A model generated the notes under the pieces. The model ran no database searches, was not told the DNA's origin, and saw nothing but the letters and a program-made list of their open reading frames with translations. Position numbers and translations under genes: made by a program. Below are positions 8,329 through 26,722 of a stretch of DNA of 47,834 nt, piece by piece. The stretch's first letter is position 1. Every line of letters begins with the position of its first letter. The DNA is taken from assembly GCA_041690235.1 (NCBI GenBank), contig JAWLHS010000003.1, positions 1 to 47,834 on the forward strand, given 5' to 3'. Source of the DNA: Bacteroidales bacterium. Its GTDB lineage: Bacteria; Bacteroidota; Bacteroidia; Bacteroidales; UBA7960.

Positions 8329-8346
8329 TTGTTAATAATTTCACAT
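8329..8346. promoter_or_regulatory. Rex operator upstream of the hnd operon
   Basis: TTGTTAA-TAAT-TTCACAT vs Rex consensus TTGTGAA-N4-TTCACAA; lies just upstream of the -7 element and next to rex. Confidence 0.7.
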
Positions 8347-8472
8347 CTTGAACAACACTCCACCAATCCGGAATTAGACCTGGACCCGGAAACCATTCAG
8401 CAATGGGGTAATCAGGGGCATAGACCATCCAATTTAGAAAGGCTCTAATTATAAATACCCCCTGACAGGAAC

Positions 8473-11382: not shown

Positions 11383-12540
11383 TTAGTAAATGACCTCTTC
11401 CCGGAAGTTATTAATAATTGAGTTGAACGGGTTGGGAACCGATTGACCGAGTCCGCATTTGGAGGCGAGCCGCATGGTTTCGGACAACTTCTGCAGTTCT
11501 TCAAGGTAGGATGGGGGCTTTATCCCTTTCTTCACAGCCTCAATGCCCTTTAAAAGTTGTTGACAACCGACCCTGCAAGGGGTGCATTGCCCGCAGGATT
11601 CTTCCTCGAAAAATTCCAGGTAATCGTGAAGAATGTTGTACATGGACCGGGAGCTGTTGAAGATCATCATCGATCCACCCGTGGGTATGCCTTCAAAGCC
11701 GATCAGGGTCTCTTTGAAATGCTTGCGGGAAACGCAGAATCCGGAAGCACCACCCACCTGCACGGCCTTGGTGTCTCCATCTCCAAACTCATTGACGAAT
11801 TGCTCAAGGGTCATTCCAAGTTCAAGCTCGTAGATGCCGGCATTGGGCGTATCTCCCGAAACAGAAAAAACCTTTGATCCCCTGGAGTCAAACGTACCCA
11901 TGTCCTTGAACTGCTGAGGACCATGATGGGCAATCATCAACGCAAAAACAAGGGTCTCCACGTTATTAATGGATGTGGGCTTGCCCAGGTATCCTTTGGA
12001 GGTAGGGAATGGTGGTTTGTTGCGTGGTTCTCCCCTTTTCCCTTCCATGGATTCCATCAGCGCCGTTTCCTCTCCACAAACATAAGCTCCGCTACCTGAG
12101 CGGATAAAAACGGCAAACTCCACGTTCCGCTCCTTCATTTGTTTATTAAAGGCCGCCACACGCTCATTCAACATGGGAAGCATGAAATTATACTCCGCAC
12201 GAAGGTATATGTACCCCTCACTGGCGCCAATGCAAAAGCCGCAAAGTGCCATCCCTGCGAGGACCTTTTCAGGAACCTGGGTCAGAATCTCCCGGTCCTT
12301 GAAGGTTCCGGGTTCCCCCTCGTCGGCATTGCAGATCACATATTTCTGTTCAGATTCTTCATTTTTGGCGAACTTCCACTTCAAGCCCGTCGGGAACCCT
12401 GCTCCTCCCCTGCCACGAAGTCCGGAGTCAATCACATCCAGGATAATTTCGTCCTCGGTGCGTTGAAAAGATTTGTCCAGAATGGCAAGGTGATCTACCT
12501 GATCAAAAATGAGATCAACTTTTTTTATCTTATTTTCCAT
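11383..12540 (-). CDS. hydB: Short NuoF-like NADH/FMN-binding subunit (non-bifurcating-type HydB)
   Basis: GLRGRGGAGFPTG, NADEGEPGTFKDR, GAYVCGEET, GGASG, CGQCTPCRVG; lacks N-terminal 2Fe-2S and C-terminal ferredoxin domains (385 aa). Confidence 0.88.
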   Translation of the reverse strand: MENKIKKVDLIFDQVDHLAILDKSFQRTEDEIILDVIDSGLRGRGGAGFPTGLKWKFAKNEESEQKYVICNADEGEPGTFKDREILTQVPEKVLAGMALCGFCIGASEGYIYLRAEYNFMLPMLNERVAAFNKQMKERNVEFAVFIRSGSGAYVCGEETALMESMEGKRGEPRNKPPFPTSKGYLGKPTSINNVETLVFALMIAHHGPQQFKDMGTFDSRGSKVFSVSGDTPNAGIYELELGMTLEQFVNEFGDGDTKAVQVGGASGFCVSRKHFKETLIGFEGIPTGGSMMIFNSSRSMYNILHDYLEFFEEESCGQCTPCRVGCQQLLKGIEAVKKGIKPPSYLEELQKLSETMRLASKCGLGQSVPNPFNSIINNFREEVIY

Positions 12541-12594: not shown

Positions 12595-13062
12595 TCAGCC
12601 TTTTTTCAGGTATCCGCCAATAATTTCGACCGCTTTTTCAGGGCTGATCTCCGGATAAACCTCATCGTTTACCAGCATAACGGGGCCCTTATGGCACCAG
12701 CCAAGGCAATTGGCCTGGAGCAAACTGAACATCCCGTCGGATGTGGTTTCACCGACCTTGATCTTCAGCATATCTTCGAGCACATCGACAATGGCATCCT
12801 TGCCTTTCATGTGGCAGGTGATGGTCTTGCAGATACGAATAATATGCTTGCCCCTGGGCTTTGTATCCATGAAGGTGTAAAAAGAGGCCGTACCATATAC
12901 ATCAGCGGCGCTCAGGTCGAGCTCCCTGGCAATGGCAATCATGGCTTCTTCCGAAAGAAACCGCTCCGATTGAACCACAGCCTGGAGAACAGGCATCAGA
13001 CTGTCGCGGCGACGGCCGTACTTATCGGCCTGCTCTTTTACGAACGCATCAATTTTAGTCAT
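12595..13062 (-). CDS. hydC: NuoE-like [2Fe-2S] subunit (HydC)
   Basis: VYGTASFYTF, CKTITC...CLGWC. Confidence 0.88.
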   Translation of the reverse strand: MTKIDAFVKEQADKYGRRRDSLMPVLQAVVQSERFLSEEAMIAIARELDLSAADVYGTASFYTFMDTKPRGKHIIRICKTITCHMKGKDAIVDVLEDMLKIKVGETTSDGMFSLLQANCLGWCHKGPVMLVNDEVYPEISPEKAVEIIGGYLKKG

Positions 13063-13295: not shown

Positions 13296-13742
13296 CTAAG
13301 ACCGATTAATGATGGAAATGATTTCTTCGGCCGACCTTCGGACAGTCCCGGAAAGGCTTTCTCCAACCCGCATATCACCAGGCTGAACCCCGATCACCCA
13401 GGTTTCTGAATCAAAAAATGCCGACAGCCTCTGGAGGGATATATTGTGGCTGTGAAGGCTTGTTTCCACCACCTGCCCGATGGGGATGGGCTTCCAGAAT
13501 CCGGGGGGTTCCCAAAATTCTACGCAATCAAGAATAAGCAGCAGGTCTGGTTTCTCCCTGGTTATGGCAGAGATGTACCGCTCCAATCCGGATTCCGGAA
13601 TGAGGACCACCCAATTGTCGCGTGTTTTAATCCGGGCGGCAATAAAGGGCCCGACTCCGTCATCATTGCGAAGGACATTGCCAATGCCGGCAAATACGAT
13701 ACGAAGGTCCGGATCGGAAAGGCGGGGAAGAATTTTTTCCAT
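13296..13742 (-). CDS. hycI: Hydrogenase maturation endopeptidase (HycI-like)
   Basis: GIGNVLRNDDGVG, LILDC, HSHNISL, IGVQP. Confidence 0.85.
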   Translation of the reverse strand: MEKILPRLSDPDLRIVFAGIGNVLRNDDGVGPFIAARIKTRDNWVVLIPESGLERYISAITREKPDLLLILDCVEFWEPPGFWKPIPIGQVVETSLHSHNISLQRLSAFFDSETWVIGVQPGDMRVGESLSGTVRRSAEEIISIINRS

Positions 13743-13765
13743 CAATCATTTAGGCCTGAAGAAGA

Positions 13766-14377
13766 CTAAAGCAAATCCTTAACCAGAACCTGGCGGAGGC
13801 AGTTCGGGCAAACAATATTGAACATATCCTTCCTTTTCAAATGATCGATCACTTTGACCCGGGTGTCCTGCGGCGCAGCAAGTTTTAACCGCTCGTTCAA
13901 ATGATTCAGATTCATCATGGAAGAAAAGGCTTTGGGGCCAAGTGTTTCATGGATAAAGGAAAAATGCGCGCGGGTTGTAATAACGGCCTGGCAGGACTGA
14001 CAAAGGATCAATTCCCGTTCCTGGGTCTCAACCAGGCTGTTCCTGTCGAAGGTGGAAAGGTCGAACAAGGTTTCCGAAAGGGCCACCCCCTTGCCGGTAA
14101 TGCAATGCGCCTCACATTGTCCGCAAAAGATGCACCGGCCATAATCCCTTGTGATGGTTCTGATCCCACGAACAGGATCGTCAACGAACTGAATGGCCCC
14201 CGGCGGACAAACATTGGCGCAGGTTTCACATCCAACGCAATGGTCCTCATCAACCACGGGCTTTCCCCTGAATTTCTCAAAGGGGGTATGTGCCTCCTGG
14301 GGAAAACGCGAAGTGTAGGCCGGTGAAATGAGCGAAACAACGGCTTCCCTGATTTCTCTGATTTTAGGATACTTCAT
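13766..14377 (-). CDS. NuoI/HycF-like 2x[4Fe-4S] subunit with extra C-terminal CxxC...CxxC site
   Basis: FRGKP, CVGCETCANVCP, CIFCGQCEAHC, plus CQSC and CPNC. Confidence 0.85.
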   Translation of the reverse strand: MKYPKIREIREAVVSLISPAYTSRFPQEAHTPFEKFRGKPVVDEDHCVGCETCANVCPPGAIQFVDDPVRGIRTITRDYGRCIFCGQCEAHCITGKGVALSETLFDLSTFDRNSLVETQERELILCQSCQAVITTRAHFSFIHETLGPKAFSSMMNLNHLNERLKLAAPQDTRVKVIDHLKRKDMFNIVCPNCLRQVLVKDLL

Positions 14378-14378
14378 G

Positions 14379-14798
14379 TCAAAATTGATTTTCCCCGTTC
14401 ACCTGCTTTTTGGGTTTCTCCGGGGTGTCTCCTTCGGGCTTTTCCCCTGAGGCCACACCATCCGACTCCATGCTTAAAAGCTTTTTTTTATAATCGTCCG
14501 CCACACTTTTTTCCCATAGCCCGAATCCATAATGATAGGCCCCCCTTGCAAGGGAGTGCGCTGCAACCGTTGATGCCAGGAACAAAAGGGGGATGGAGAC
14601 CAGCGCTTTGATGCCGATCTCTGAGAACCCGAATTTGACAAAAACCCCGAGCAGAATGCACCAGGTTCCCAGGGTAACGCATTTGGTAGCAGACTGAAGC
14701 CGGTTATAGACATCAGGAAAACGTAGCAGGCCCAGGCATCCGAAAAAATCAAAAAGGATGCCGATACAGATCAATACGATGCTAATGGTTTCACTCAT
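14379..14798 (-). CDS. mnhG: MrpG/MnhG (MbhC-like) subunit
   Basis: GLLRFPDVYNRLQSATKCVTLG, AAHSLARGAY. Confidence 0.88.
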   Translation of the reverse strand: MSETISIVLICIGILFDFFGCLGLLRFPDVYNRLQSATKCVTLGTWCILLGVFVKFGFSEIGIKALVSIPLLFLASTVAAHSLARGAYHYGFGLWEKSVADDYKKKLLSMESDGVASGEKPEGDTPEKPKKQVNGENQF

Positions 14799-15057
14799 TG
14801 AGTTTATTCCTCCCTAAATATTTAGCCAATGTCAGTGTTCCGATAAAACTTAAAATAATCCAGGCAATGCCGATATCCAGAATAAACATTCTATCGGTCT
14901 TCATGGCAATGATGGCGGTAATGCCCACCACAAGGATGCCCAGGATATCGATGCCAACCATGCGATCGGCCATGGTGGGGCCTTTAATGACCCTGTAAAG
15001 GCAAAGAAAGCACATGCCAACCAGGGGGTAAAGAAAATAATGGTACATAGGGCTCAT
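14791..15057 (-). CDS. mnhF: MrpF/MnhF (MbhB-like) subunit
   Basis: RVIKGPTMADRMVGIDIL, LSFIGTLTLAKYL. Confidence 0.88.
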   Translation of the reverse strand: MSPMYHYFLYPLVGMCFLCLYRVIKGPTMADRMVGIDILGILVVGITAIIAMKTDRMFILDIGIAWIILSFIGTLTLAKYLGRNKLNE

Positions 15058-15539
15058 TCAAAAATCCTCCTGATATATTTTTCAAACCTGCCGCAGATTT
15101 TCCCGGAATACACCTCAGAGTCCATACTGCTCACATAAATCCAGTGTATGTAAATGTAATCGCCGATAATATCAATGGTGATGGTGCCCGGGGTCATGGT
15201 TATGGAGTTGGCAAGCATGGTTTTGGCCATATCCGTCTGCACATTCAGTCTGACTTTCACGATCCCGGGCCTGATCGGGAGGGCGGGGTGCAGCACCCTG
15301 TAAGCCACATCGAAGTTGGCTTTTATGCACTCCCAAAGAAAAACAAATAAAAAAGCGAGGGCCCATAAATACCTGCCGGGTTGCAGGACCTTCCGGCTTC
15401 CCCATGGAAAATACTTTCCGAAAACCACCACGGCCAGCAGAGAAGAAAGTCCGCCGACCAGGAGACTATCCGGCTTCAGGTTGAAGGTAAACAACAACCA
15501 GACAATCATGAGCAAAAGAAATATGGCCAAATACCTCAT
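15054..15539 (-). CDS. mnhE: MrpE/MnhE (MbhA-like) subunit
   Basis: KANFDVAYRVL, PGIV, LANSITMTPGT, IYIHW. Confidence 0.9.
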   Translation of the reverse strand: MRYLAIFLLLMIVWLLFTFNLKPDSLLVGGLSSLLAVVVFGKYFPWGSRKVLQPGRYLWALAFLFVFLWECIKANFDVAYRVLHPALPIRPGIVKVRLNVQTDMAKTMLANSITMTPGTITIDIIGDYIYIHWIYVSSMDSEVYSGKICGRFEKYIRRIFE

Positions 15540-17077
15540 AACGGAAGTCCTAAAATTGGTTTTGAATAGTCAAGGGTATTAATCAGGACATCCACGGCCG
15601 GTGTCAGAAAAATGTCCCTGAAAAACGGAATGATCAAAAGACTAAGTCCCAGGCAGAGCAGGGCAAGGATGACCATGGAGAAACCCATGCTGAAAGGGGC
15701 CTCTCCGAATACTTTTTTGTCTTTGAATCTTGGTATTCCTGAAAAGACATACCGATGAACCTTCATAAAGGAGGCCAGGGTCACTATGCTGACAATGACA
15801 GCCAGCACCGCCATTAAATAAAACCGGCCCTGAACAGCAGCAATGATAATCAGTAATTTACTAAAGAACCCATTGAAGGGGGGGATGCCTGATATGGCCA
15901 TTGAGGCACTGAAAGAGGTGGAGGCCGTTAATGGCATATTCCCGGAAAGTCCGCCGAGTTCCCGCAGCATCCGGGTTCCGGTTTTATATTCAACCGCCCC
16001 GGAATTCAGGAAAAGCAAGCCCTTAAATACGGCATGATTGACCATATGAAATAAACCGCCAAGGATGGCCAGCGCAGCGACTCCGGGGTTTCCGCCAACC
16101 GAAAGGATCACCATTCCCATCCCGAGCCCGAGCATCACATACCCCATCTGACTGATGCTGTGGTAAGCCAGTAACCGCTTAAAGTCCCATTGTCCAATCG
16201 CCAGCAGCACCCCACCAACCATTGAAACGGTACCGACAACGGCAATCAGCATAGCGGCCTGGTAATTCAACTCGAACACATTGAAGAACAAGCGCATGAT
16301 GCAGTATATACCGACAGCCTTGATCAATACGCCGGAAAGCATCGCAGAGATAGGGGCCGGCGCAGAAGAGTGGGCATCGGGAAGCCAGGCATGGAAAGGA
16401 ATCATTGCCGCCTTCAGCCCAAATCCGGCAATAAACAGGATCTGAACAAATTGAAGCGAAGCCATTTGCCCGTTTTCCTTTAACAGCATGGAAATATCCG
16501 CCATGTTAAGCGATCCTGTTTGCCAGTAAAGGATGGCCACCCCAAGCAAAATAAGCAAGGAGGCCAGGCCTCCCAGGACCTGGTATTTGAAGGAAGCTTC
16601 CAGCTCATCCTTTTCAATGCCAAAGGCAACCAGGGCATAACTGGAAATAACGGCGATCTCCAGGAAGATAAACAGATTGAACAAATCACCAGTAATCACC
16701 ACGCCATTCATGCCCGCAACCATCAGGCAAAACAGGGAATAGAAGTACCTGTTTCCGGTAAATTTCCGGATATATGACACGGAATAAAAGCAGGCGAGGA
16801 AACCGATCAGGTTGATGATGGAGAGCATCAACACACTGAGCCCGTCCACCACAAAATGAATGCCCACCGGAATGCCGTCGATCAATTCCCATCCCCCGAC
16901 ATGATATACAAGGACCCCTTCCTCCCTGAAGAAAAGAAGCAGGCTGAAGGCACTAAGGACAAACATCAGCAATGGGGAGACCACCTTGGGAAGGGGTTTC
17001 CAGAACCCGGTCAGGACCGGGATGATGAAAGCCCCTGTAAGCGGCAGGATCACAAACAAAGGGATTAAAAGCAACAT
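15536..17077 (-). CDS. mnhD: MrpD/MbhH antiporter-like subunit
   Basis: DLFNLFIFLEI (TM5 Glu), LKAAMIPFHAWLPDAH, SGVLIK, KRLLAYHSISQMGY, FFSK. Confidence 0.9.
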   Translation of the reverse strand: MLLLIPLFVILPLTGAFIIPVLTGFWKPLPKVVSPLLMFVLSAFSLLLFFREEGVLVYHVGGWELIDGIPVGIHFVVDGLSVLMLSIINLIGFLACFYSVSYIRKFTGNRYFYSLFCLMVAGMNGVVITGDLFNLFIFLEIAVISSYALVAFGIEKDELEASFKYQVLGGLASLLILLGVAILYWQTGSLNMADISMLLKENGQMASLQFVQILFIAGFGLKAAMIPFHAWLPDAHSSAPAPISAMLSGVLIKAVGIYCIMRLFFNVFELNYQAAMLIAVVGTVSMVGGVLLAIGQWDFKRLLAYHSISQMGYVMLGLGMGMVILSVGGNPGVAALAILGGLFHMVNHAVFKGLLFLNSGAVEYKTGTRMLRELGGLSGNMPLTASTSFSASMAISGIPPFNGFFSKLLIIIAAVQGRFYLMAVLAVIVSIVTLASFMKVHRYVFSGIPRFKDKKVFGEAPFSMGFSMVILALLCLGLSLLIIPFFRDIFLTPAVDVLINTLDYSKPILGLPL

Positions 17078-17081
17078 CTCA

Positions 17082-17420
17082 CTAACCTTTTAATTGTTTA
17101 ATTTCCCTGATATCAAACGTTCCGTGCTTTTTATACACCCTGATGGCGATGGCAAGCAACATCGCCGTAGTGGCCAGGCCAATCACAATGACCGTTAACA
17201 CCATGGCCTGTGGGAGCGGATCCACAAAGCTGGTCCCTTCATGCCCCCTGATCAGAATGGGGGCGTCACCACCTTCAATGTAACCGACCAAAACAAGGAG
17301 GAGATTCAGGCTGTATTCCATGATACATATGCCCAATACGATCTTGATCACATTTCGGCGGGTAATGACCCCGTAAAGGCCCACCAAAAAAAGCAAGAAA
17401 CACAAAATGTAAAGGGTCAT
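17082..17420 (-). CDS. mnhC: MrpC/MbhG (NuoK-like) subunit
   Basis: VDPLPQAMVLTVIVIG. Confidence 0.9.
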   Translation of the reverse strand: MTLYILCFLLFLVGLYGVITRRNVIKIVLGICIMEYSLNLLLVLVGYIEGGDAPILIRGHEGTSFVDPLPQAMVLTVIVIGLATTAMLLAIAIRVYKKHGTFDIREIKQLKG

Positions 17421-17860
17421 TTCTCCTCCTCTTTAAAGATTACAAATGCAAGAAAAACGGTAAAAAGAGCGGCGGCCACCTCCAGGCCAATCAATAGATT
17501 GAAAACAGGAATGATCCCGGCGCTGACCAACTCTCCGACAACGCCCCGGGCAAGGAAATTCGCAAAAAACACCTTGCTGCCCAGCACCATTCCCAGGACC
17601 CCGGCAAGCAAAAAGGCCAGAATGGCCATATTCTCAAGTGCAGAAGAGCCTTCCTTAACCCGGCGCAGATGCATCATGTCGTCTCCAAAAGCAAGAACAA
17701 GCAAAATAAAGGAGCCCGCGATCACGGTGCCCCCGGCAAATCCCCCTCCCGGAGTCAGGTGGCCATGGGTTACCAGGTAGATTCCAAAAACGAATACCAC
17801 CCCACTGATCAGGCGTGCTACTGTTTTAACGATGCCGGTCATTCCTTTCTCCATGGTCAT
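17417..17860 (-). CDS. mnhB: MrpB/MbhF subunit
   Basis: HGHLTPGGGFAGG, IGLEV. Confidence 0.9.
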   Translation of the reverse strand: MTMEKGMTGIVKTVARLISGVVFVFGIYLVTHGHLTPGGGFAGGTVIAGSFILLVLAFGDDMMHLRRVKEGSSALENMAILAFLLAGVLGMVLGSKVFFANFLARGVVGELVSAGIIPVFNLLIGLEVAAALFTVFLAFVIFKEEEK

Positions 17861-18414
17861 TTCCTCCCTTTAAGTCTCAAAACCGTGAGAATCCCCATTA
17901 CGGCGGTAATCAAAATGGTGGCTTCCCCAAGGGTGTCATACGCCCGGAAATCAAACAGGATGCCAGCCACCAGGTTGGCACTCCCGGTAAGCTCAGCGCC
18001 TTTCTCAATATAGGCGGAGGCCATTCTCAGTTGGTGAATTCCAAAAGGATTCAGTCCGGAAACCGCCAGGTTGAAAAAATACAGCAGGGCCGCAACAAAC
18101 ACCAGTCCGGTGATAAAATAAACCGCGGAACCAAGGTTCACATAACGAACGCCCTCCACACGAATGGTGGTTTTCTCGGAAAGGTCCTCCCGGGTACTGA
18201 TCCGGATAACCGCTATCATAATGATCAGGGTAACGATTTCAACCACAATCTGGGCAATGGCCAGATCAGGCGCTTTCAGAAGCAGAAAACAAATCACCAG
18301 TCCGAATCCGGTAACCCCGTAAGAGATGACTGCCGAAAGCAAATCGCCCGCATGCAGGGTATAGATCGAACCGGCGATCATCAGGATGATTATGACGGCA
18401 AGAAGCACTTCCAT
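17857..18414 (-). CDS. DUF4040 (MbhD)-MbhE fusion, equivalent to the MrpA C-terminal part
   Basis: LKAPDLAIAQIVVE (DUF4040) followed by NLVAGILFDFRAYDTLGE (MbhE/MrpA C-terminal motif). Confidence 0.85.
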   Translation of the reverse strand: MEVLLAVIIILMIAGSIYTLHAGDLLSAVISYGVTGFGLVICFLLLKAPDLAIAQIVVEIVTLIIMIAVIRISTREDLSEKTTIRVEGVRYVNLGSAVYFITGLVFVAALLYFFNLAVSGLNPFGIHQLRMASAYIEKGAELTGSANLVAGILFDFRAYDTLGEATILITAVMGILTVLRLKGRK

Positions 18415-18426
18415 AATAAAAGACGT

Positions 18427-20295
18427 TTACAGAAAGACGACTAACATAAGTATTAACCCGGCGATCATCCAGATCAGATAAACCGGCAGAATCCCCGAAT
18501 GAAGCCATGAGAGCCCCTTACTCAGACCCAAAACCGTTGTCCGGGCAATTTCATACAAATCAAAATATTTTTGCTCAGCCCCCCTGTACATGGCTTTCAG
18601 GGATTCGTTGGCCGTGATGGTTTTGTAAAATTCACCCGATTCAAAACCGGCTTTGCTCCCTGCCGGTTCCCCCAGGATGAAGGGCTCGTCCACCCTGATA
18701 TTGTTCCTGCCCATCACCCGGTAAATGATCAATCCAAGCACAATGCTGATCAGAACAAGCAGGGACACGGTGGGAGACTCCCACACCCCGATGTAAGAAA
18801 ATGATCCGCTCGCGGCCCCGATGATTTTTGGTATGACCCAGTTGTAGGAGAATACGCCAAAGACAATGCATATCACAGCCAGCACAGCCTGCGGCAGCCA
18901 AAGCAAGGGGTTTTTCTCCCTGATCGACTGGTAAACCGGCTTTATGGGACCCAGAAAAATTCCGGAAAGGAATTTCACAAAACTGGCGAGCGTCAGAGCC
19001 GAACCAAACATGGCAAATGCCAGCCATACGACCCATAACTGGTTTGCCAACCCCTCCCCTTCCCCAAACTGGATAATGCCCTGGTATATCAACCATTTTG
19101 AGGCAAACCCGTTCAGGGGAGGAATGCCGGCAATGGAGAGGGAAAAAACGACCACGGCAAAAAAGGTAAGCGGCATCACCCTGGACAGTCCGCCAAGATC
19201 GCCGATCAGGTGACGTCCTGTTTGCCGCTCTATGTGGCCGGCCGACAGGAACAATCCGCTTTTATACAAGGCATTGTTCACCATATGGAACAGTCCCCCT
19301 GCCAGTCCGATCGGTGAGCCAAGGGCAAGCCCCGTAATCATATAGCCAACCTGGGAAACGGCGTGATACCCCAGTAATCGCTTGTAATTGTGCTGGGCCA
19401 GGGCCATCATGACCCCGATCAGGATGGTGGCCACCCCGGCAATCAATACCGCAAGTGTAATCCAGCCGGCGACAACAAACATATGATTGAACAACCTGGC
19501 CAGAAAGTAGATGCCGAGCAATTTATCCAGTGAGGCGGGAAGGAAGGCCGATGAGCTGGCCGGAGCATGGGTTGAAAAGTCCGGCACCCATGTATGAAAA
19601 GGAAATGCGCCCGCCTTGGTGAAGGCACCAATAAGCAAACAAAAAAATGCAACAACCCCCAGCATATTGCTGGTTGGAACGTCCATTCCGGTGATGGAGA
19701 GCGGAAACCCCAAACGCAGGATGAGGGCCAGTCCGAGGATCATTATCCCATCGGATGCCCCGATCATGATCAGGGTTTTCTTGGCCGTGGAGGCGGTAAT
19801 GCTGTTATGCCCCTTAATGAGCTTATAAAGGGTCAGTCCGAGAATGCCCCAGAAAAACACAAACAGCAACAGATGGTCAGCCAGGACCGCCCCATTCGAA
19901 CAACCAGCGGTAATCAGAAAGTAGGAAAAGTAGTGCCTCGGCCTGGTTTTGGGCAAGAGGTACCCCAGGGAGTAGACCGAAATGACCAGCGTGATGAAGC
20001 CGGCCGACAGAACGATCAACTTGCTGAGGCCATCCACATTCAGCAAAGAAAACTGCTCGGCCTGGGAGAGAACGGATTGAAGAATTGACTGGTCACGAAA
20101 CAGGCCTTGTCCCAGTTCCAGGGTCGCAAGACCCGTCTGACGAAAATACACCAGAAATGAATAAACCAGGTTCACCAGGGCCACAAGGATCGAAAGCACA
20201 CCCACTACCCTGGAATGGCGCTCCGGGATCAGAAAAAAAAGCAGACCCGCAAGAACCGGCAAAAAGATGACAATATGCAATTCGTTGATGATCAT
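18427..20295 (-). CDS. NuoL/MrpA/HyfB-like antiporter-type membrane subunit
   Basis: TKAGAFPFHTWVPD, KRLLGYHAVSQVGY, GIPPLNGFASKW; many TM segments; TM5 Glu replaced by Gly. Confidence 0.88.
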   Translation of the reverse strand: MIINELHIVIFLPVLAGLLFFLIPERHSRVVGVLSILVALVNLVYSFLVYFRQTGLATLELGQGLFRDQSILQSVLSQAEQFSLLNVDGLSKLIVLSAGFITLVISVYSLGYLLPKTRPRHYFSYFLITAGCSNGAVLADHLLLFVFFWGILGLTLYKLIKGHNSITASTAKKTLIMIGASDGIMILGLALILRLGFPLSITGMDVPTSNMLGVVAFFCLLIGAFTKAGAFPFHTWVPDFSTHAPASSSAFLPASLDKLLGIYFLARLFNHMFVVAGWITLAVLIAGVATILIGVMMALAQHNYKRLLGYHAVSQVGYMITGLALGSPIGLAGGLFHMVNNALYKSGLFLSAGHIERQTGRHLIGDLGGLSRVMPLTFFAVVVFSLSIAGIPPLNGFASKWLIYQGIIQFGEGEGLANQLWVVWLAFAMFGSALTLASFVKFLSGIFLGPIKPVYQSIREKNPLLWLPQAVLAVICIVFGVFSYNWVIPKIIGAASGSFSYIGVWESPTVSLLVLISIVLGLIIYRVMGRNNIRVDEPFILGEPAGSKAGFESGEFYKTITANESLKAMYRGAEQKYFDLYEIARTTVLGLSKGLSWLHSGILPVYLIWMIAGLILMLVVFL

Positions 20296-20313
20296 GGATG
20301 TCTGGTTTTTTCC

Positions 20314-21507
20314 TTACATGTTTCGCCTGATTGCCTGTGTATGTTGTTGTGACAGTTGTATGAGCCCTTTTCCGTCCAGGATTTTTTCACGGGTTTTGGC
20401 GTTATAGACAGTGGCCATGCGCTCCGTGCAGCAATAACAGGGATCCACGGCAGCCAGGGCGAGGGTCGCATCACTGATGGTTTGTCCGACGCATGATTTT
20501 TTAAATGTGGCCACATTCACATAACTTGGGGCGCGGATCTTATGGCGGACGGGCGAATTGGAGCCGTCGGTTTTCACATAGTGAAACACCTCGCCCCGGG
20601 GCGCCTCAGCCCTGCCCGATCCGTCGCCCTCCGGGATATGCTTCACTTTCACCTCAATGGTTCCTGGTGTTTCCTTTCTTAATTTTTCAACGCATTGCTC
20701 AATGATGCTGATGGATTCGAAGACCTCCAGGAACCGGACCACGGCTTTGGCGTAAACATCGCCTTCATTGGCAGTGATTACCTTCCAGTTAACCAATGGA
20801 TAGGCGGCATAGGGATCGTCCCGCCGGATGTCCGCATCAAGGCCGGAAGCCCGGGCTGTCGGACCCACCGCACAATAGTCGGTTATATCCTGCCTGGTCA
20901 GTATGCCGATCCCCTTCGTCCGCATATGGATCACCGGATCGTCAATCACGGCCTTCATTAACATGTCCACCTTGGGCTTCAGTGCATCCAGGATCTTCAA
21001 AATCAGGGAGTAATCCTTGTCCGCGATATCCCTTCTGACACCGCCAATTTTAAACATGGCGTAGCTGTTGCGGTTGCCGGTGATGATCTCAAAAAGATCC
21101 AGAACGGGTTCCCGGTATTTCCATGCCCACATGAAGACCGTGTTGTAACCAATAAAATGCCCGGCCAGTCCCACCCACAGAAGATGACTGTGAATCCTTT
21201 CCAGCTCCCCGACTATGGTCCTTATGAATTTCGCACGGTCAGGCACCTTTACATGGGCAATTTCCTCCATGGCGTTTGCATAGGCAAATGGATGGGAGGT
21301 GGAGCAAATTCCACAAATACGCTCAACAACGAAAAAGACCTGTTCGAAGGTTTTCGATTCATTGATCTTCTCAATGCCCCTGTGATTGTATCCCGTTTCC
21401 CATTCAATGTCGGTCACAATTTCCCCATCACAATACAGCCTGAAGAGTTCAGGCTCTTCCTGCAGGGGATGATAGGGGCCAACGGGAATGATCGTTTTTT
21501 CGCTCAT
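20314..21507 (-). CDS. Group 4 energy-converting [NiFe]-hydrogenase large subunit
   Basis: GPYHP, HRGIEK, L1 ERICGICSTSH, EAPRGE, L2 DPCYCCTER followed by a 34-aa cleavable extension. Confidence 0.93.
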   Translation of the reverse strand: MSEKTIIPVGPYHPLQEEPELFRLYCDGEIVTDIEWETGYNHRGIEKINESKTFEQVFFVVERICGICSTSHPFAYANAMEEIAHVKVPDRAKFIRTIVGELERIHSHLLWVGLAGHFIGYNTVFMWAWKYREPVLDLFEIITGNRNSYAMFKIGGVRRDIADKDYSLILKILDALKPKVDMLMKAVIDDPVIHMRTKGIGILTRQDITDYCAVGPTARASGLDADIRRDDPYAAYPLVNWKVITANEGDVYAKAVVRFLEVFESISIIEQCVEKLRKETPGTIEVKVKHIPEGDGSGRAEAPRGEVFHYVKTDGSNSPVRHKIRAPSYVNVATFKKSCVGQTISDATLALAAVDPCYCCTERMATVYNAKTREKILDGKGLIQLSQQHTQAIRRNM

Positions 21508-21546
21508 GCAAAACTTGTGGTTAAATGGTTGTTATCCATGGGTCAT

Positions 21547-21993
21547 TTAACGGGGTTTCTGAATGGTTTTTTTCATGGGATATTCCCCCTCCTTCCAATT
21601 GCCATCCGACAACAGACTTCTCATATTGGGGTGGTTCAGAAAATTCACCCCCAGCAGTTCGTGCATTTCCCGCTCAATCCATTCTGCCGCAACAAAAAGC
21701 GGCGTAAGAGACTCGATTTCAGGATTTTGCTTTGGAACCTGCACCCTAAGGTTGGCGATCAGACCGGTTTTGTCGTTGCTGAAATGATACACCAGTTCGT
21801 ACGCCTGCCCGTTATCCAGACCCGTAGCTATGATGAAGCGGAAATGCAGTTCGTGATAAAGGAAACTGGCGGCCTTAAAAAGAACGTCCTTGTTCAGGTC
21901 CAGCAACGCCCTGTTCTTGTACCGGATAAATACCCGCAGGACATTCAGTTTGAACTTGAACTTCATTAATTCGATGAACTCTGTTGTTTCCAT
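21547..21993 (-). CDS. NuoC-like (MbhK/EchD) subunit
   Basis: ELVYHFS, AAEWIEREMHELLGVNFLNHPN; start moved to METTEFIE (21993). Confidence 0.88.
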   Translation of the reverse strand: METTEFIELMKFKFKLNVLRVFIRYKNRALLDLNKDVLFKAASFLYHELHFRFIIATGLDNGQAYELVYHFSNDKTGLIANLRVQVPKQNPEIESLTPLFVAAEWIEREMHELLGVNFLNHPNMRSLLSDGNWKEGEYPMKKTIQKPR

Positions 21994-22003
21994 AAGGGAA
22001 AAC

Positions 22004-22417
22004 CTAGGGTTTATTGAGAAATTTGACAATTCCTGCCAAAATGGCTTCCGGCTTGGGCGGGCAACCCGGAATATACACATCGACCGGAATCAGCCGATCG
22101 ACCGGACCGGCGAACGTATTGCCCTCCGCAAAGATTCCTCCTGTGCAGCCGCAGGCCCCGATGGCCACCACCACAACAGGCTTCGGGGCCTGTTTGTAGA
22201 TCTCGAGCAGTCGGGATTTGCTTTTCTGGTTGATGGACCCGGAGACCAGCAACACATCGGCATGCCGTACACTGCCGACCAGTAACATTCCAAAGCGCTC
22301 CACATCGAACCGCGGAGTCAGGCAGTCGAGCACCTCTATGTCGCAGTTGTTGCAGGACGCCCCTGCAAAGTGGAATAACCACAAAGATTTCTTAAAACAA
22401 TAACTTTTTATGCCCAC
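22004..22417 (-). CDS. Group 4 hydrogenase small subunit (NuoB/MbhJ/HycG-like)
   Basis: SCNNCDIE, RFDVERFG, RHADVLLVSG, GACGCTGG, IPGCPPKPE. Confidence 0.92.
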   Translation of the reverse strand: MGIKSYCFKKSLWLFHFAGASCNNCDIEVLDCLTPRFDVERFGMLLVGSVRHADVLLVSGSINQKSKSRLLEIYKQAPKPVVVVAIGACGCTGGIFAEGNTFAGPVDRLIPVDVYIPGCPPKPEAILAGIVKFLNKP

Positions 22418-22427
22418 AACTTCTGAT

Positions 22428-23363
22428 TTACAAACCTATATATGCCAAACCAATGGCAATCACCGCAATGACATTCATCCAGACAAAGAAGAACCTCAAT
22501 GCCTGCCCGGTGGTGAGTCTTGGATTGGTATTGCGGATCAGGGAAATCACAAGAACAACACCCAGCAGCTTCAGCAACGACCAGAGAATATGAAGACCCT
22601 CAAAGCGCAGTCCGCCCAAAAGGATTACTGCGACAAATGAAGGGAGGGCCAGAAGCATGATGTGCTTGGCAAGTTTTATCAGTGCGAGAACCAGCCCGGA
22701 ACATTCAATAAAAATCCCCCCGGCAACCTCCGTTTCAGCATCGGCAACATCAAAAGGCACCAGGGCCAGTTTGGCCTGGACGCACATCATCAGAGGGATA
22801 AAAAGCAGCACACCCGAAATGCTGCCGATAAATGCCCCCCCCTCCTGCTGGACCGCCATGATTTCTGACAGGCTGATTGAATTGCCCGCTTTTAGGATTA
22901 CAGCCCCAATTACAAGCAGCAAGCTTAACTCATAGCCAATCACCAATTTCATCTCACGGGATGCGCCAAGGTTTGCCAGGGGATTTCCGCTGCTCAAGGC
23001 ACCGATAATGTATGAAACCGAAGGAATCATCAAAAGGTAAAACACCACAATCAGGTCACCCCTGAAACCGGGCGTGATCCCAAAAGCCGGCAACAATATG
23101 AACATAATGGCCAAGGAGGCGCCGGCAACGGCGAACACCGGGGCCATAAAAAACAGGGGCCTTGACGCATTGACCGGAACGATCACTTCTTTGCCCAGCA
23201 ACTTAACGAAATCGTAAAACGGCTGTAACAAAGGCGGACCAACCCGGAATTGAAGCCTCGCAGTAATTTTCCGATCAAGCCAGGATAAGAAACCACCCCC
23301 GATGGAAGCGAACAAAAAGCCTGGAAAAATCAGGAAATAAAAAATGTGTCCAGCCAATTCCAT
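22428..23363 (-). CDS. NuoH-like membrane anchor (MbhM/HycD)
   Basis: DRKITARLQFRVGPPLLQPFYDFVKLLGKE, GASRE, PFDVADAETE, NPRL; start at MELAGH overlaps the upstream stop (TGATG). Confidence 0.9.
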   Translation of the reverse strand: MELAGHIFYFLIFPGFLFASIGGGFLSWLDRKITARLQFRVGPPLLQPFYDFVKLLGKEVIVPVNASRPLFFMAPVFAVAGASLAIMFILLPAFGITPGFRGDLIVVFYLLMIPSVSYIIGALSSGNPLANLGASREMKLVIGYELSLLLVIGAVILKAGNSISLSEIMAVQQEGGAFIGSISGVLLFIPLMMCVQAKLALVPFDVADAETEVAGGIFIECSGLVLALIKLAKHIMLLALPSFVAVILLGGLRFEGLHILWSLLKLLGVVLVISLIRNTNPRLTTGQALRFFFVWMNVIAVIAIGLAYIGL

Positions 23364-23866
23364 CAGGTCTCTTTTAAGGTTTCCCATGCAAATTCTTTCA
23401 CCATAACCCTGTCATTCAGCTCAAAGAGAAAAGATTCCTTGTCCGGCGTCACTTCTTCAAAAGACAGGGCCCCATTCGGACAGGTTTCCACACATCTCAG
23501 CTTGTTTGTCGATTCATCAAAGTGGCAATAATCACAAACCGATTTTCGAACTTCAAAGAATTGATTCATCAAAGTACCAAAGGGGCAAGCAGTCACGCAG
23601 GATTTGCAGGCAATGCAAAGATTGGCAGAGCGTTCAACCGTCCCGGATCCATCCCGCTCAAGCGCCTCGGCCGGACAAACGTCTATACAGGGGGCCTCTT
23701 CGCATTTCCTGCAGGTATACTGAAAAACAGCCATTTCCAGAAGTGACATCATCCCGTTATTATTGGGATGAAAAGGATAAACACATTCCACACTGCAGGT
23801 TTTACACTCCCTGCATTTGCTCAGGTCGATAACGATCTTTCTTGTTGTCATCTGTTTGGAATCCAT
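23363..23866 (-). CDS. 4x[4Fe-4S] electron-transfer protein (HycB/DmsB/CooF-like)
   Basis: CRECKTCSVEC, CRKCEEAPCIDVCP, CIACKSCVTACPFG, CDYC...CVETCP. Confidence 0.85.
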   Translation of the reverse strand: MDSKQMTTRKIVIDLSKCRECKTCSVECVYPFHPNNNGMMSLLEMAVFQYTCRKCEEAPCIDVCPAEALERDGSGTVERSANLCIACKSCVTACPFGTLMNQFFEVRKSVCDYCHFDESTNKLRCVETCPNGALSFEEVTPDKESFLFELNDRVMVKEFAWETLKET

Positions 23867-23884
23867 CCTTTTATTCCAGGCCGC

Positions 23885-24706
23885 TTACCAAATATGCGGC
23901 TGGTCTTTTATCTCGTCATACGTAAAAACGGGGCCATCCCGGCAAACAAAGTAGCCTCCCAGCATACAATGACCGCATTTCCCAAGGCCACAGGACATAT
24001 TCTTTTCCATCGAAAGATAAATCAGGTGATCCGGGAAGCCCATATCCAGTAATTTTTTGGTTCCGAATTTCATCATGACCGGGGGTCCGCAGACAACGGC
24101 GATGGCATTTTCAAGGTCTACCTCAACGTGGTCAAGAAGGACGGTAGCCACCCCGACGTGTTCCTCCCAATGCTTGTCGGCAAAATCAACCGTCCGCAAC
24201 GTCTGAAACTTATCGATCCTGTTCAACTGGCTGAACAAGGGCTTATAAATGCAATCCTGTGGTGTCTTCGACCCGTAGCAGAGCGTCACCTTCCTGAGTT
24301 TGTCCTTCATGTCAATCAGGGCGAACAATAATGAACGGATGGGAGCCAGTCCACATCCCCCGCTGAGAATAAGGACTTCCTTGTCAGCGAACTTCTCTAT
24401 CGGGTATCCCCGCCCGTAAGGTCCCCTTACCCCAAGAACCGACCCGGGCAGCAGCTGATGCATCTTATCCGTCACATACCCGGCCTTCATAATGGTGACC
24501 TCAAACCGATCATGAATCAGGGGAGAGGATGAGGGGGTAAACGGGGCCTCCCCGATCCCATCCACTGTCAACTCAACAAATTCACCGGTCTGAAAACGAA
24601 ACGCCTCTTCAGGAACCAGCACAAGGGTCCTGATCAAAGGTGATTCCTCAATGACCTTTTCAATGGTGGCCTTCAGTGGTTTGTAAATATTTGTTGGTTG
24701 ATTCAC
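23885..24706 (-). CDS. FAD/NAD(P)-binding [2Fe-2S] subunit, AsrB / sulfhydrogenase gamma / FlxA-like
   Basis: GIGEAPF, GVRGPYGRGYP, GGCGLAPIRS, CGPPVMMKF, SMEKNMSCGLGKCGHC...VCRDGPVF; GTG start. Confidence 0.88.
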   Translation of the reverse strand: MNQPTNIYKPLKATIEKVIEESPLIRTLVLVPEEAFRFQTGEFVELTVDGIGEAPFTPSSSPLIHDRFEVTIMKAGYVTDKMHQLLPGSVLGVRGPYGRGYPIEKFADKEVLILSGGCGLAPIRSLLFALIDMKDKLRKVTLCYGSKTPQDCIYKPLFSQLNRIDKFQTLRTVDFADKHWEEHVGVATVLLDHVEVDLENAIAVVCGPPVMMKFGTKKLLDMGFPDHLIYLSMEKNMSCGLGKCGHCMLGGYFVCRDGPVFTYDEIKDQPHIW

Positions 24707-24715
24707 CGTTTGGGT

Positions 24716-25717
24716 CTATTTGGTCAGTTCCACAAGCAATTCATTTTTATCGATCTTTCCAATGCAGGCTTCGATACACCTGCCGCATCCGGTACAGGCA
24801 ATGGCCTCAAACTTTTCAGGCCGGTACAGGTATTTGCAGAGGTAGCGATTCCTGAACCTGTTTTCCATTTTTTTCAATGGATCCTCTCCGCCGGCGGTTC
24901 GTTCAAAGCCCGGGTACTGGCACACATCCATTTGTCTTACCTTCTCAAATCCAGGACGATCGATCAGCAGAAAACAGGTGCAGGTCGGGCAAATCAGGGC
25001 ACAAGCCCCGCAAGACACACAGGTTTTGGCGTATTTGCGCCATATCTCCTCTTCCGCGTTCAGAATGGCATCGGCTGACTCCTGGTAATTTGGGAGTCGC
25101 CTGTTCATTCCTTCAAGTTCTTTTTTTACCTTCTGCCGGATTTGCTGCACATCATTGGGTTCATCTCCGTTAAGGCTCCTAAAAGGCACGGCCTCCAGCA
25201 TTTTGGACAGGAATTCGTCCCCCTTGTCAGTATAAACGGAAACAAAGACATGGCCGTTCAGCAAACTTACAGTGACATCCTGGTTTTTTTCCGGGTAAGG
25301 ATTCAACCCGTAACTGGTGCAATGGCAATGGGCATTGACCGAATGACAATCCGTTCCAATCAGGATGGTTCCATTGCGTCGCCGGGCATAATAGAGGTCC
25401 GGGAAATCCCCGTTAAGAAAAAATTTATCCAGCAAGTCCAGGGCAAACAAATCGCAGCCGGGTACACCCATTACGACGACCGGCAAGTCCTTTGCCGGCG
25501 GGAGAACCACATTCTCCTTGATGGGGAGGAAGAAGGCTTTAAGGGGAGTGACCGGCTTGGGGGTATTATACACTATTTCCGGAACCTCCTCTTTCCCAAT
25601 GATTGTATAATCAAGGGTCTTCTTTCGATAAACCGGAGCGTATACCCGGTAAACGGGAAGAAGACCCGTCAACGCCTCATCCCAGGCTGTTCGCTCAAGC
25701 TGGTAGTACCGGACCAT
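24716..25717 (-). CDS. 4Fe-4S protein, AsrA / sulfhydrogenase beta / FlxB-like
   Basis: PLKAFFLP, GVPGCDL, CHC, CVSCGACALICPTCTCF, RFRNRYLCK, CTGCGRCIEAC. Confidence 0.88.
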   Translation of the reverse strand: MVRYYQLERTAWDEALTGLLPVYRVYAPVYRKKTLDYTIIGKEEVPEIVYNTPKPVTPLKAFFLPIKENVVLPPAKDLPVVVMGVPGCDLFALDLLDKFFLNGDFPDLYYARRRNGTILIGTDCHSVNAHCHCTSYGLNPYPEKNQDVTVSLLNGHVFVSVYTDKGDEFLSKMLEAVPFRSLNGDEPNDVQQIRQKVKKELEGMNRRLPNYQESADAILNAEEEIWRKYAKTCVSCGACALICPTCTCFLLIDRPGFEKVRQMDVCQYPGFERTAGGEDPLKKMENRFRNRYLCKYLYRPEKFEAIACTGCGRCIEACIGKIDKNELLVELTK

Positions 25718-25788: not shown

Positions 25789-25824
25789 ATGACAAGTGTC
25801 AGAAAAAAAACTGATTTAAATCAT
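25789..25824. promoter_or_regulatory. Tandem Crp/Fnr-type boxes upstream of the group 4 hydrogenase operon
   Basis: ATGACAAGTGTCAG (25789-25802) and CTGATTTAAATCAT (25811-25824), both TGA-N6-TCA, centres 22 bp apart; -7-like TAATATTG on the minus strand at 25759-25766. Confidence 0.6.
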
Positions 25825-26528
25825 GCCGGGAAGGCCTTCCCGATCTTAAGCAATGCCTTCTTATTCAGCACTTTTATCTTTCTGCCTCTGATTTCAATCA
25901 GTTGATCGTGCTTAAACTCCGAAAGCAGGCGAATGAGGGTCTCTGTGGCTGTTCCCACCAGGTTGGCAAGGTCTTCCCTCGATAAACTGATTACCGTGCC
26001 ATCGTTGCTATGATCCGGGCGGAAGGTTTCATCCAGGGCCAGCAGGGTTTCAGCCACCCTTTCGCGCACTGATTTTTGAGCAAGGGAAGTGATCTTGTTC
26101 TCCGCACCTTCAAGCAAAAAGCTGAGCGTTAACATAATACGCTGAGAAAGTTCAGGGTATTTTAAGGTCAGCTGAAAAAATTTCCTCTTATTGATAAAAC
26201 AACAAACCGAATCGTCCAAAGCAGTGGCGGAGGCGGCATAGGGCTTCCCCGAAATCATGGATCTCAGGCCAAGCAATTCTCCCGGAAGAGCAACCCTCAC
26301 GATTTGCTCCTTCCCCTCTGAACCCAGTTTAAAAACCTTGATTTTTCCCTGGTAAACGCAATAAATTCCCAGGGCCCCCTTCCCTTCATAATAAATCACC
26401 TGACCCCTGCGATAAAAAAAACAAGTCTTCTTGATGTTCAGATCCAGCATATCACTTTCGTCGATCCCCTTGAATATCGACTTCCGGTGAATGGGACAAT
26501 CATCGCAGCTGACATTGATTAATGCCAT
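25821..26528 (-). CDS. Crp/Fnr-family transcriptional regulator with N-terminal CxxC
   Basis: SCDDCP, cNMP domain (GKIKVFKLGSEGKEQI), HTH LSREDLANLVGTATETLIRLLSEF. Confidence 0.92.
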   Translation of the reverse strand: MALINVSCDDCPIHRKSIFKGIDESDMLDLNIKKTCFFYRRGQVIYYEGKGALGIYCVYQGKIKVFKLGSEGKEQIVRVALPGELLGLRSMISGKPYAASATALDDSVCCFINKRKFFQLTLKYPELSQRIMLTLSFLLEGAENKITSLAQKSVRERVAETLLALDETFRPDHSNDGTVISLSREDLANLVGTATETLIRLLSEFKHDQLIEIRGRKIKVLNKKALLKIGKAFPA

Positions 26529-26636: not shown

Positions 26637-26680
26637 ATGATTTTTGTCATAATTTGCCGGAACACCAATATGTACCTTTG
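26637..26680 (+). promoter_or_regulatory. Crp/Fnr-type box plus Bacteroidota promoter of the hyp operon
   Basis: ATGATTTTTGTCAT (26637-26650), TTTG (26653-26656), TACCTTTG -7 element (26673-26680). Confidence 0.65.
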
Positions 26681-26722
26681 AAAGCGGCCCATCAAGCCGG
26701 TTTGTTAAATAGACCAACCGAC

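Follow-up and report, generated by a model that had tools for sequence, protein, structure and literature searches.

A Bacteroidales operon joining an AsrAB-like pair, a group 4 [NiFe]-hydrogenase and a complete Mrp module: a putative reversible NAD(P)H-linked hydrogenase

This study concerns an operon in a 47,834-nt stretch of DNA from a sediment Bacteroidales bacterium (UBA7960 in the GTDB lineage; assembly GCA_041690235.1, contig JAWLHS010000003.1, positions 1 to 47,834), hereafter the window, which belongs to a genome of 2.49 Mb in 271 contigs that is 89% complete. The operon consists of 17 same-direction open reading frames (ORFs) that occupy 25717 to 13296 of the minus strand. An earlier note, made from the sequence alone, had listed 17 co-oriented and tightly packed genes of named families, and the ORF list bears it out at every coordinate, with Pfam and NCBIfam scans agreeing on the families. 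Spacing between neighboring genes varies between an overlap of 77 nt and a gap of 39 nt. That overlap, the largest, involves the nuoC ORF, in which a Met at residue 30 would cut the overlap to 11 nt; this call is probably over-long, with the real start near 21993. A scan for sigma-70 promoters and terminators between 12400 and 26800 returned 14 and 24 hits versus 16.1 and 20.3 in shuffled sequence, the model being uninformative for a Bacteroidota operon.

The core of the operon is that of a group 4 [NiFe]-hydrogenase, i.e., a NuoD/HycE-type large subunit accompanied by NuoB-, NuoC-, NuoH- and NuoI-like subunits and an antiporter-like membrane subunit. The large subunit (20314-21507; 397 aa; Pfam Complex1_49kDa and NiFeSe_Hases) carries both Ni-binding motifs, RICGICSTSH and DPCYCCTER, which in group 4 enzymes read RxCGxCxxxH and DPCxxCxx[H/R], and ends in a C-terminal extension of 34 aa. 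Among solved structures it matched MbhL (6cfw_L; E 3e-87, 296 bits) and HycE (7z0s_E; E 8e-79, 269 bits), with complex I subunits scoring well under both. All 61 complete large-subunit orthologues from relatives have both Ni motifs and a tail of 31 to 44 aa. The NuoB-type small subunit (22004-22417; 137 aa; Oxidored_q6, E 1e-32; NCBIfam NF005012 above cut-off) carries Cys22, Cys25, Cys89, and Cys119, and is flanked by the NuoC-like subunit (21547-22080; Complex1_30kDa) and a NuoH/HycD/MbhM-like membrane subunit (nuoH, 22428-23387; Pfam NADHdh, E 1e-58). The last gene of the operon encodes a HycI-type maturation endopeptidase (13296-13745; TIGR00072, 73 bits, above cut-off; HycI model TIGR00142, 60 bits, below cut-off), and the maturation genes hypF-hypC-hypD-hypE-hypA-hypB adjoin on the plus strand (26654-32593, Pfam assignments; hypC at 29008-29241), divergent from the operon and from the regulator gene that precedes it.

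To this core is joined a complete Mrp antiporter module, recovered by both Pfam and NCBIfam, with MrpA split into N- and C-terminal parts. The former is a NuoL-like subunit of 622 aa (18427-20295; Proton_antipo_M) with structural matches to MbhH (6cfw_H), MrpA (7qru_A), and HycC (7z0s_C), and the latter is an MbhD/MbhE protein (17857-18414; Pfam MbhD and MbhE) that aligns to approximately residues 605-785 of MrpA models. MrpB (17417-17860; MnhB), MrpC (17082-17420; Oxidored_q2), MrpD (15536-17077; Proton_antipo_M), MrpE (15054-15539; MNHE), MrpF (14791-15057; MrpF_PhaF), and MrpG (14379-14798; PhaG_MnhG_YufB) follow, all above the Pfam cut-offs. The arm thus contains two antiporter-like subunits and would be expected to couple the reaction to Na+/H+ translocation.

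Two further proteins resemble the internal wiring of formate hydrogenlyase (FHL). The HycB-like protein (23363-23866; 167 aa), a HycB/CooF-type polyferredoxin, has 16 Cys arranged in four complete [4Fe-4S] motifs, and its structural matches include HycB3/HycB4 of the hydrogen-dependent CO2 reductase and Escherichia coli HycB (7z0s_B). The HycF/NuoI-like subunit (13766-14377; NF009053, E 5e-26, below cut-off; HycF 7z0s_F, E 9e-15) combines two ferredoxin motifs, for 2x[4Fe-4S], with a C-terminal CxxC...CPxC quartet (Cys126/129/190/193). In the passages of the FHL structural study that deal with this region, the quartet is described as a single-metal site that is kept in FHL and HyfH, not in complex I, and that sits where HycF meets HycB and FdhF; a loop between the B3 and B2 motifs is said there to contact HycF and HycE (PMC9474812). 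The operon therefore has both elements of an FHL-type connector, the HycB-type multi-cluster protein and the HycF Cys4 site; however, none of its 17 genes encodes a molybdopterin (formate dehydrogenase) domain.

In the place of that enzyme stands a pair of genes at the head of the operon. The product of the first, asrA-like (24716-25717; 333 aa; Pfam Fer4_22), is homologous over its full length to the beta subunit of sulfhydrogenase I (SHI) (9nez_B; E 1e-27, residues 3-322), and that of the second, asrB-like (23885-24706; 273 aa; NAD_binding_1 and DHODB_Fe-S_bind), to the gamma subunit (9nez_C; E 2e-47). The sulfhydrogenase beta/gamma-type domain set is thus complete, with a Fer4_22 polyferredoxin and an FAD/NAD(P) fold bearing a C-terminal [2Fe-2S] domain. 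All 16 Cys of the AsrA-like protein are invariant among 71 sequences, as are the NAD(P)-binding GGxGxxP motif and the [2Fe-2S] ligands Cys239/244/247/255 of the AsrB-like protein among 40. Scores on NCBIfam models fell below the equivalog cut-offs for AsrA-like (147 bits versus 690 for ShyB; 112 versus 323 for AsrA) and AsrB-like (189 versus 289 for AsrB; 172 versus 600 for ShyC) alike, by which the two proteins are homologues, not equivalogs, of ShyB/HydB/AsrA and ShyC/HydG/AsrB.

Since databases name such homologues "anaerobic sulfite reductase" or "sulfhydrogenase (sulfur reductase)", we weighed a function in sulfite or sulfur reduction, with AsrAB serving an anaerobic sulfite reductase or the whole complex acting as an Mbs-like sulfane reductase. 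This is extremely improbable. The best match to AsrC (TIGR02912) in the 89% complete genome reached 37 bits against a cut-off of 324, none of the 61 complete large-subunit orthologues lacks either Ni motif, the maturation protease and the hyp genes adjoin, and the large subunit scored just 165 bits on MbsL (6u8y_L), well under MbhL and HycE. The same genome, at this completeness, yielded neither another [NiFe] large subunit nor a second Fer4_22 protein above cut-off. With no AsrC and no other large subunit, these two offer no alternative user of the AsrAB pair. The claim that nothing else lays hold of the pair is strengthened to that extent; molybdopterin enzymes are encoded elsewhere in the genome and none within the operon, and hdrABC and CO dehydrogenase were not searched for.

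The arrangement is widely conserved. The sample comprised the best 80 loci by AsrA-like alignment, with one genome per species, and in 79 of them the genes after asrA are colinear with those of the window as far as the DNA extends, as the synteny proposed for checking in the earlier note predicted. We found asrB in 78, hycB in 77, the large subunit in 66, and mrpD in 53 of the 80; the sole exception to synteny, L071, had no nuoC detected at the threshold used. Two further genomes (L105 and L106) carry all 17 genes through the protease. The whole operon is encoded in the near-complete genome G312, and a homologue occurs in Salinivirga cyanobacteriivorans. Syntenic loci come from Bacteroidales, Lentimicrobiaceae, Marinilabiliaceae, Cyclobacteriaceae, Rikenellaceae, Cloacimonadota, Omnitrophota, Latescibacterota, and an "Actinomycetota" metagenome-assembled genome (MAG). 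The asrA-asrB gap has a median of 6 nt, and asrB and hycB lie at most 70 nt apart in 53 of 75 loci. Between asrB and hycB, 20 of 75 relatives encode a stand-alone cNMP-binding-domain protein of ~158 aa, with no DNA-binding domain (two copies, L017 11841-12317 and L009 5366-5845, match Pfam cNMP_binding, and the other 18 are deduced from a gap of >400 nt). The closest related locus, L001, has an insert of ~5 kb between nuoH and nuoB, at about 13300-18660.

Co-occurrence tells the same story. An AsrA-like gene was present in 3 of 60 relatives and in 1 of 400 sampled genomes of the phylum, and large-subunit orthologues at 73 to 89% identity occurred in exactly these four carriers, all other large-subunit matches being 33 to 38% identical. 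The module is a patchy accessory unit, yet an indivisible one. Pairwise distances of the AsrA-like protein and the large subunit co-vary over 61 taxa (r = 0.90), which is a sign of shared history, not of binding.

These patterns bear on an alternative in which the locus encodes an ordinary ferredoxin-dependent Mbh-Mrp hydrogenase of group 4g and AsrAB, a soluble NAD(P)H:acceptor oxidoreductase in its own right, is only co-transcribed with it. Ferredoxin dependence is the published reading for Cloacimonadota MAGs: Williams et al. (2021) linked the 4g Mbh of Cloacimonadota and Omnitrophota to Mrp and inferred ferredoxin as the donor (PMC8542988). One of these MAGs, Ca. Tenebribacter mawsonii, is the source of our syntenic locus L024 (its number matches the list in that paper), which has the order asrA-asrB-hycB-...-mrpF and a large subunit 70% identical to that of the window. 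In the text of the article the term "anaerobic sulfite reductase" does not appear, and passages of it on "sulfhydrogenase" concern group 3b enzymes. Group 4g is itself a loose class of unknown function in HydDB (PMC5037454), and is elsewhere described as loose or polyphyletic. We regard a ferredoxin-only hydrogenase with an unconnected AsrAB pair as very improbable, given the fixed place and order of asrAB in all but one of the 80 loci across several phyla, the strict co-occurrence of AsrA-like protein and large subunit in the sampled genomes, and the FHL-type HycB connector with its HycF Cys4 extension, the latter touching the input module in E. coli FHL.

The HycB-like protein varies in a way that constrains where electrons may enter. 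Four-cluster proteins of the HycB fold use motifs I and IV as the docking end for the catalytic subunit, as in formate dehydrogenase-N. Motifs II and III are invariant among 70 sequences, whereas I and IV are complete in just 12 of 75 relatives and lost in the other 63. A quick tree of AsrA places the four-cluster form in all 8 rows with a HycB-like ORF within a 9-row non-Bacteroidota clade; in Bacteroidota it is found in a sub-clade made up of the window, L001, and L004 and in a second one made up of L051, L057, and L069, such that the two- versus four-cluster label needs at least three changes. The ligands of AsrAB are invariant even in lineages whose HycB-like protein is down two clusters, which suggests that the AsrA-like protein feeds the relay at or near HycB clusters II/III or HycF. 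Clusters I and IV would then form a side branch, of which the HycB-like protein of the window retains a stub that could be usable for another donor.

A rival reading is that the complex is a three-way redox hub, with ferredoxin or another donor also entering at the outer HycB clusters (motifs I/IV). The enzyme might then act as an Rnf/Mbx-like ferredoxin:NAD(P)+ oxidoreductase with a hydrogenase outlet, or combine ferredoxin and NAD(P)H for H2 production. The window retains four full motifs where two suffice for most relatives, the genome encodes RnfC, and Cloacimonadota hydrogenases of this kind have been annotated as ferredoxin-dependent (PMC8542988). In addition, AlphaFold models outlined in a report on group 4b clusters with SHI-beta/gamma and a Cys-less formate dehydrogenase (Fdh) subunit branch three ways, for which bifurcation or confurcation was proposed (PMC13582414). 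Nevertheless, we consider the hub unlikely. Neither an Fdh-like nor another third-partner gene occurs in the operon, and no molybdopterin protein was found among the 10 ORFs scanned upstream of asrA in four distant loci (L072, L074, L079, and L080), which encode RACo, a CbiA/MinD-type ATPase, a nucleotidyltransferase, formate-tetrahydrofolate ligase, two Rex proteins, an antiporter-like subunit, FecCD, an ABC ATPase, and a ROK protein. Motifs I/IV were lost at least twice with AsrAB intact, so the branch is not needed for the conserved function, and the AsrB-like flavoprotein belongs to the simple FNR/PyrK type. The branching of the group 4b models is in keeping with clusters I and IV as a side branch, and the operon may descend from an Fdh-like plus SHI-beta/gamma group 4b system after loss of the Fdh-like arm. 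In L074 (2016-7714), Wood-Ljungdahl-associated genes (for the corrinoid activator RACo, the CbiA/MinD-type ATPase, and formate-tetrahydrofolate ligase) and then rex precede the operon.

Regulatory sequences in relatives link the operon to the redox state of the pyridine-nucleotide pool. In 50 of 79 loci a rex homologue is encoded no more than 1.5 kb from asrA, usually in divergent orientation and with hyp genes after it, and all four homologues tested scored above the NCBIfam Rex cut-off. Rex is described as a repressor of NADH-oxidising functions when NADH/NAD+ is low, in an account that likewise gives the operator consensus (PMC5317091, citing Ravcheev 2012). Scanning for TTGTGAANNNNTTCACAA with at most 2 mismatches in the 79 loci with an asrA ORF call (1.29 Mb) returned 59 matches, of which 49 fell within 250 nt upstream of an asrA, a space of 19 kb in total, and 10 within the remaining 1.27 Mb. 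An operator just upstream of asrA is thus present in 46 of 79 loci (45 of the 75 with enough upstream DNA). Three loci, two with rex right before asrA and one with it divergent, have a near-perfect operator at most ~35 nt from the asrA start, and many Bacteroidales loci carry a pair of sites, the first around -205 and the second directly adjoining the start codon. The operators place the promoter ahead of asrA. Together with the rex genes, they tie the operon to NADH/NAD+ sensing, which argues that the conserved job of the operon family is connected with NADH excess.

The window itself has a different regulator. Directly upstream of asrA, where most relatives have rex, lies a gene for an FNR/CRP-family protein (25821-26528, minus strand; Pfam cNMP_binding and HTH_Crp_2; best NCBIfam match Fnr, 102 bits, below cut-off), and the hyp block flanks the regulator gene in many relatives as it does here. 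Conservation of Cys8, Cys11, Cys57, and Cys110 in eight aligned sequences suggests a metal or Fe-S sensor. An FNR-like regulator also precedes asrA in L001, L004, L046, L049, L051, L057, L069, and L107; both Bacteroidota sub-clades with the four-cluster HycB-like form carry it. The HycB-like proteins of L046 and L049 are intermediate, with 12 Cys. A palindrome, TGAC-N4-GTCA (25790-25801, minus strand), located ~75-85 nt upstream of the asrA start, is a candidate site for this regulator; TGAy-N4-rTCA was seen by reading, with no statistical test, at the matching position in L001, L004, and L107.

On balance, we think that the operon probably encodes one membrane complex, a reversible, ion-gradient-coupled NAD(P)H:H+ oxidoreductase with an AsrAB-type input module. 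Its core would be a group 4 [NiFe]-hydrogenase built on the FHL plan, as suggested by the HycB-like protein, the HycF Cys4 site, the large-subunit tail, and the HycI-type protease, and joined to a complete Mrp module, with a sulfhydrogenase-I beta/gamma-type pair instead of formate dehydrogenase as electron input. Electrons from NAD(P)H would pass to the FAD and [2Fe-2S] cluster of the AsrB-like protein, then to the [4Fe-4S] clusters of the AsrA-like protein, from there to the universally kept clusters II/III of the HycB-like protein, and through HycF and NuoB to the [NiFe] site. The docking of AsrAB on the complex, the order of the relay, the use of NADH or NADPH, ion translocation, and the direction of the reaction are all predictions from sequence. 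The earlier note had assigned the AsrAB module to the group 4 and Mrp hydrogenase; that link now draws on gene content, synteny, co-occurrence, ligand conservation, and the rex genes and operators of relatives, the last of which it had not foreseen.

Textbook potentials are -320 mV for NAD+/NADH and -414 mV for H+/H2 at 1 atm, and by these values the NAD(P)H/H2 reaction should run close to equilibrium at the H2 levels of sediments. With the couple near equilibrium, the Mrp arm would make the enzyme reversible and set its direction. Its usual job would be to release electrons from NADH as H2, a reaction that the Na+/H+ gradient would power when H2 is high and that could conserve a little energy when H2 is very low. 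Rex control and a fermentative gene context favour the direction from NADH to H2. More tentatively, and short of an even chance in our estimate, this could be the first ion-motive "NADH hydrogenlyase": a respiratory-type complex that Rex switches on as NADH accumulates and that moves electrons between NADH and H2, with the Na+/H+ gradient spent or gained, and without ferredoxin or flavin-based confurcation.

Several observations weigh against an NAD(P)H-linked complex of this kind. The association of AsrAB with the hydrogenase is argued from genomic evidence, and the scores of the pair lie so far under the equivalog cut-offs that function is transferred from distant homologues; moreover, a preference for NADH or NADPH is not readable from the AsrB-like sequence, with its conserved YGSKT stretch. 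By analogy with FHL, input would dock at the motif I/IV end of HycB, i.e., at the clusters that most relatives have lost, so that the AsrA-like protein would have to dock elsewhere or the relay to differ from the one proposed. In the window all four clusters are retained, and a second donor such as ferredoxin could find a place there. As for regulation, no Rex box occurs within 3 mismatches upstream of the asrA of the window, and the four matches at this stringency in the whole window are at chance level (32 of 100 shuffles reach four). With an FNR-like regulator preceding the operon and no Rex box, the argument from NADH sensing comes from relatives, and of the 75 of these with enough upstream DNA, 30 also have no Rex box at up to 2 mismatches. 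The operon is, finally, patchy and dispensable, as it was not found in either of two same-genus genomes (68% and 97% complete). The missing Rex box and the two HycB clusters kept here yet dispensable in most relatives are among the points that leave the earlier assignment partly supported.

The surroundings of the operon in the window make up a hydrogen-metabolism island, as judged by gene content. Downstream on the minus strand is a trio of NuoE-like (12595-13062), NuoF-like (11383-12540; 385 aa, short and without extra ferredoxin domains), and HydA (9558-11348) genes, the last scoring 889 bits against a cut-off of 765 on the NCBIfam model "NADH-dependent [FeFe] hydrogenase, group A6". The trio is near the operon in many relatives too (e.g., L025, L026, L031, L035, and L053). 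A second, HydABC-type [FeFe] cluster extends over 1118-9126 (minus strand), with NuoE-like (1118-1606), HydA (1657-3429), and HydB (3452-5245; 597 aa) genes accompanied by genes for HATPase_c proteins and a PHP-domain protein and by a rex gene (8473-9126) that has weak Rex-like sites on either side, at 8329 (2 mismatches) and 9245 (3 mismatches). At the far end, a DmsA/YnfE-family molybdoenzyme gene (45601-47832, plus strand; TIGR02166, 820 bits versus a cut-off of 777.7) runs off the window; its product has ~70 residues ahead of the Fe4S4 domain and is probably an exported anaerobic respiratory reductase. Between 38345 and 45594 lie large peptidase genes of the M3 (38345-40600), tricorn-like S41 plus PD40 (40672-43968), and M28 (44041-45594) types, a run that fits a proteolytic lifestyle.

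This context also informs the direction of electron flow. In the uptake direction, H2 would reduce NAD(P)+ while the Mrp arm pumps ions, making the complex an energy-conserving H2:NAD(P)+ oxidoreductase. Standard potentials favour H2 oxidation by NAD+ by ~94 mV according to textbook values, and the DMSO/selenate-reductase-family gene at the end of the window hints at anaerobic respiration. The soluble homologue SHI is, furthermore, called a reversible NADPH-oxidising hydrogenase in a title cited in PMC13582414. Uptake as the main direction is nonetheless quite improbable: Rex control in most relatives implies induction at NADH excess, which fits disposal rather than production of NADH; the neighbouring [FeFe] hydrogenases are of the H2-producing type, including the one scored as NADH-dependent group A6; and the characterised group 4 enzymes evolve H2 (HydDB, PMC5037454).

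The predicted NAD(P)H-linked complex combines features of several known enzymes. Like E. coli FHL-1 (FdhF-HycBCDEFG; group 4a; 7z0s), it has a four-cluster HycB connector, the HycF quartet, a NuoB-like small subunit, a cleavable large-subunit tail with a HycI-type protease, and NuoH-like and antiporter-like membrane subunits. Unlike FHL-1, it has an SHI beta/gamma-type flavoprotein pair in place of the molybdenum formate dehydrogenase, a separate nuoC gene, and a full Mrp set with two antiporter-like subunits, versus HycC alone. The Pyrococcus furiosus membrane-bound hydrogenase (MBH; group 4d; 6cfw) is the best structural match for the large and NuoL-like subunits and shares the Mrp-derived subunits, including MbhD/E; however, the MbhL chain in 6cfw stops at the second Ni motif, whereas the large subunit encoded here has its tail, with a protease alongside. 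In MBH, ferredoxin delivers electrons directly at MbhN, and the enzyme is not known to have HycB- or AsrAB-like subunits. With the beta and gamma subunits of P. furiosus SHI (group 3b; 9nez) the input pair shares full-length homology and the domain set, but it would sit with a membrane group 4 enzyme via a HycB-like protein, not with a group 3b small subunit.

Related clusters are already in print, and the design is nonetheless uncharacterised. Matheus Carnevali et al. (2019) described, next to a group 4 plus Mrp hydrogenase of Saganbacteria, asrA, asrB, cooF, and a molybdopterin protein that could not be classified (PMC6349859), Meheust et al. (2020) recorded an "Mbh-Mrp-oxidoreductase type" of unknown function in Elusimicrobia (bioRxiv 10.1101/765248), and a 2026 report presented group 4b clusters in which homologues of SHI-beta/gamma accompany an Fdh-like subunit devoid of Cys (PMC13582414). 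In the relevant passages of these sources, the function is given as unknown or proposed to involve NADPH. The operon shares with them the combination of group 4 [NiFe]-hydrogenase, Mrp, a cooF/hycB-like gene, and asrA/asrB or SHI-beta/gamma homologues; unlike them, it has no molybdopterin or Fdh-like subunit, nor was one seen in the operons of the 80 loci, as far as examined. A 2010 proposal for Desulfurococcaceae likewise had an NADPH dehydrogenase module feeding an Mbh/Mbx-type membrane complex; in the part of the paper devoted to it, the input is of the SudA/GltD type, the organisms are archaeal, and the catalytic subunit is uncertain (PMC3035292). Our literature searches turned up nothing that describes the form lacking molybdopterin as linked to NAD(P)H, reports Rex control of it, or gives an example in Bacteroidota, in agreement with the earlier remark that none has been characterised in this phylum. 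What is new here is the rex gene beside asrA in 50 of 79 relatives and the Rex operators in 46. Overall, the proposed NAD(P)H-linked complex is what best accounts for the genomic evidence.

The conversion of NADH to H2 is uphill except at very low H2, and students of fermentation and syntrophy have long asked how anaerobes meet the cost. If the complex works as proposed, the pyridine-nucleotide pool, H2, and the membrane potential would be reversibly coupled at this site. The operon also illustrates the modular swapping of input modules on the complex I ancestor, and an ion-motive "NADH hydrogenlyase", if it is one, would be a surviving intermediate form linking formate hydrogenlyase to NADH-oxidising complex I. 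The design spans Bacteroidales, Cloacimonadota, Omnitrophota, and Latescibacterota from sediments and similar anoxic habitats; because reconstructions label such hydrogenases "ferredoxin-dependent Mbh", models of these organisms may misassign electron flow. The dedicated rex gene and its operators provide a simple experimental handle. Operons of this type may let fermenters convert NADH to H2 gas; should the hydrogenlyase reading hold, fermenters and syntrophs would have a third route beside confurcating HydABC and the NADH-dependent [FeFe] enzymes that operate at low H2.

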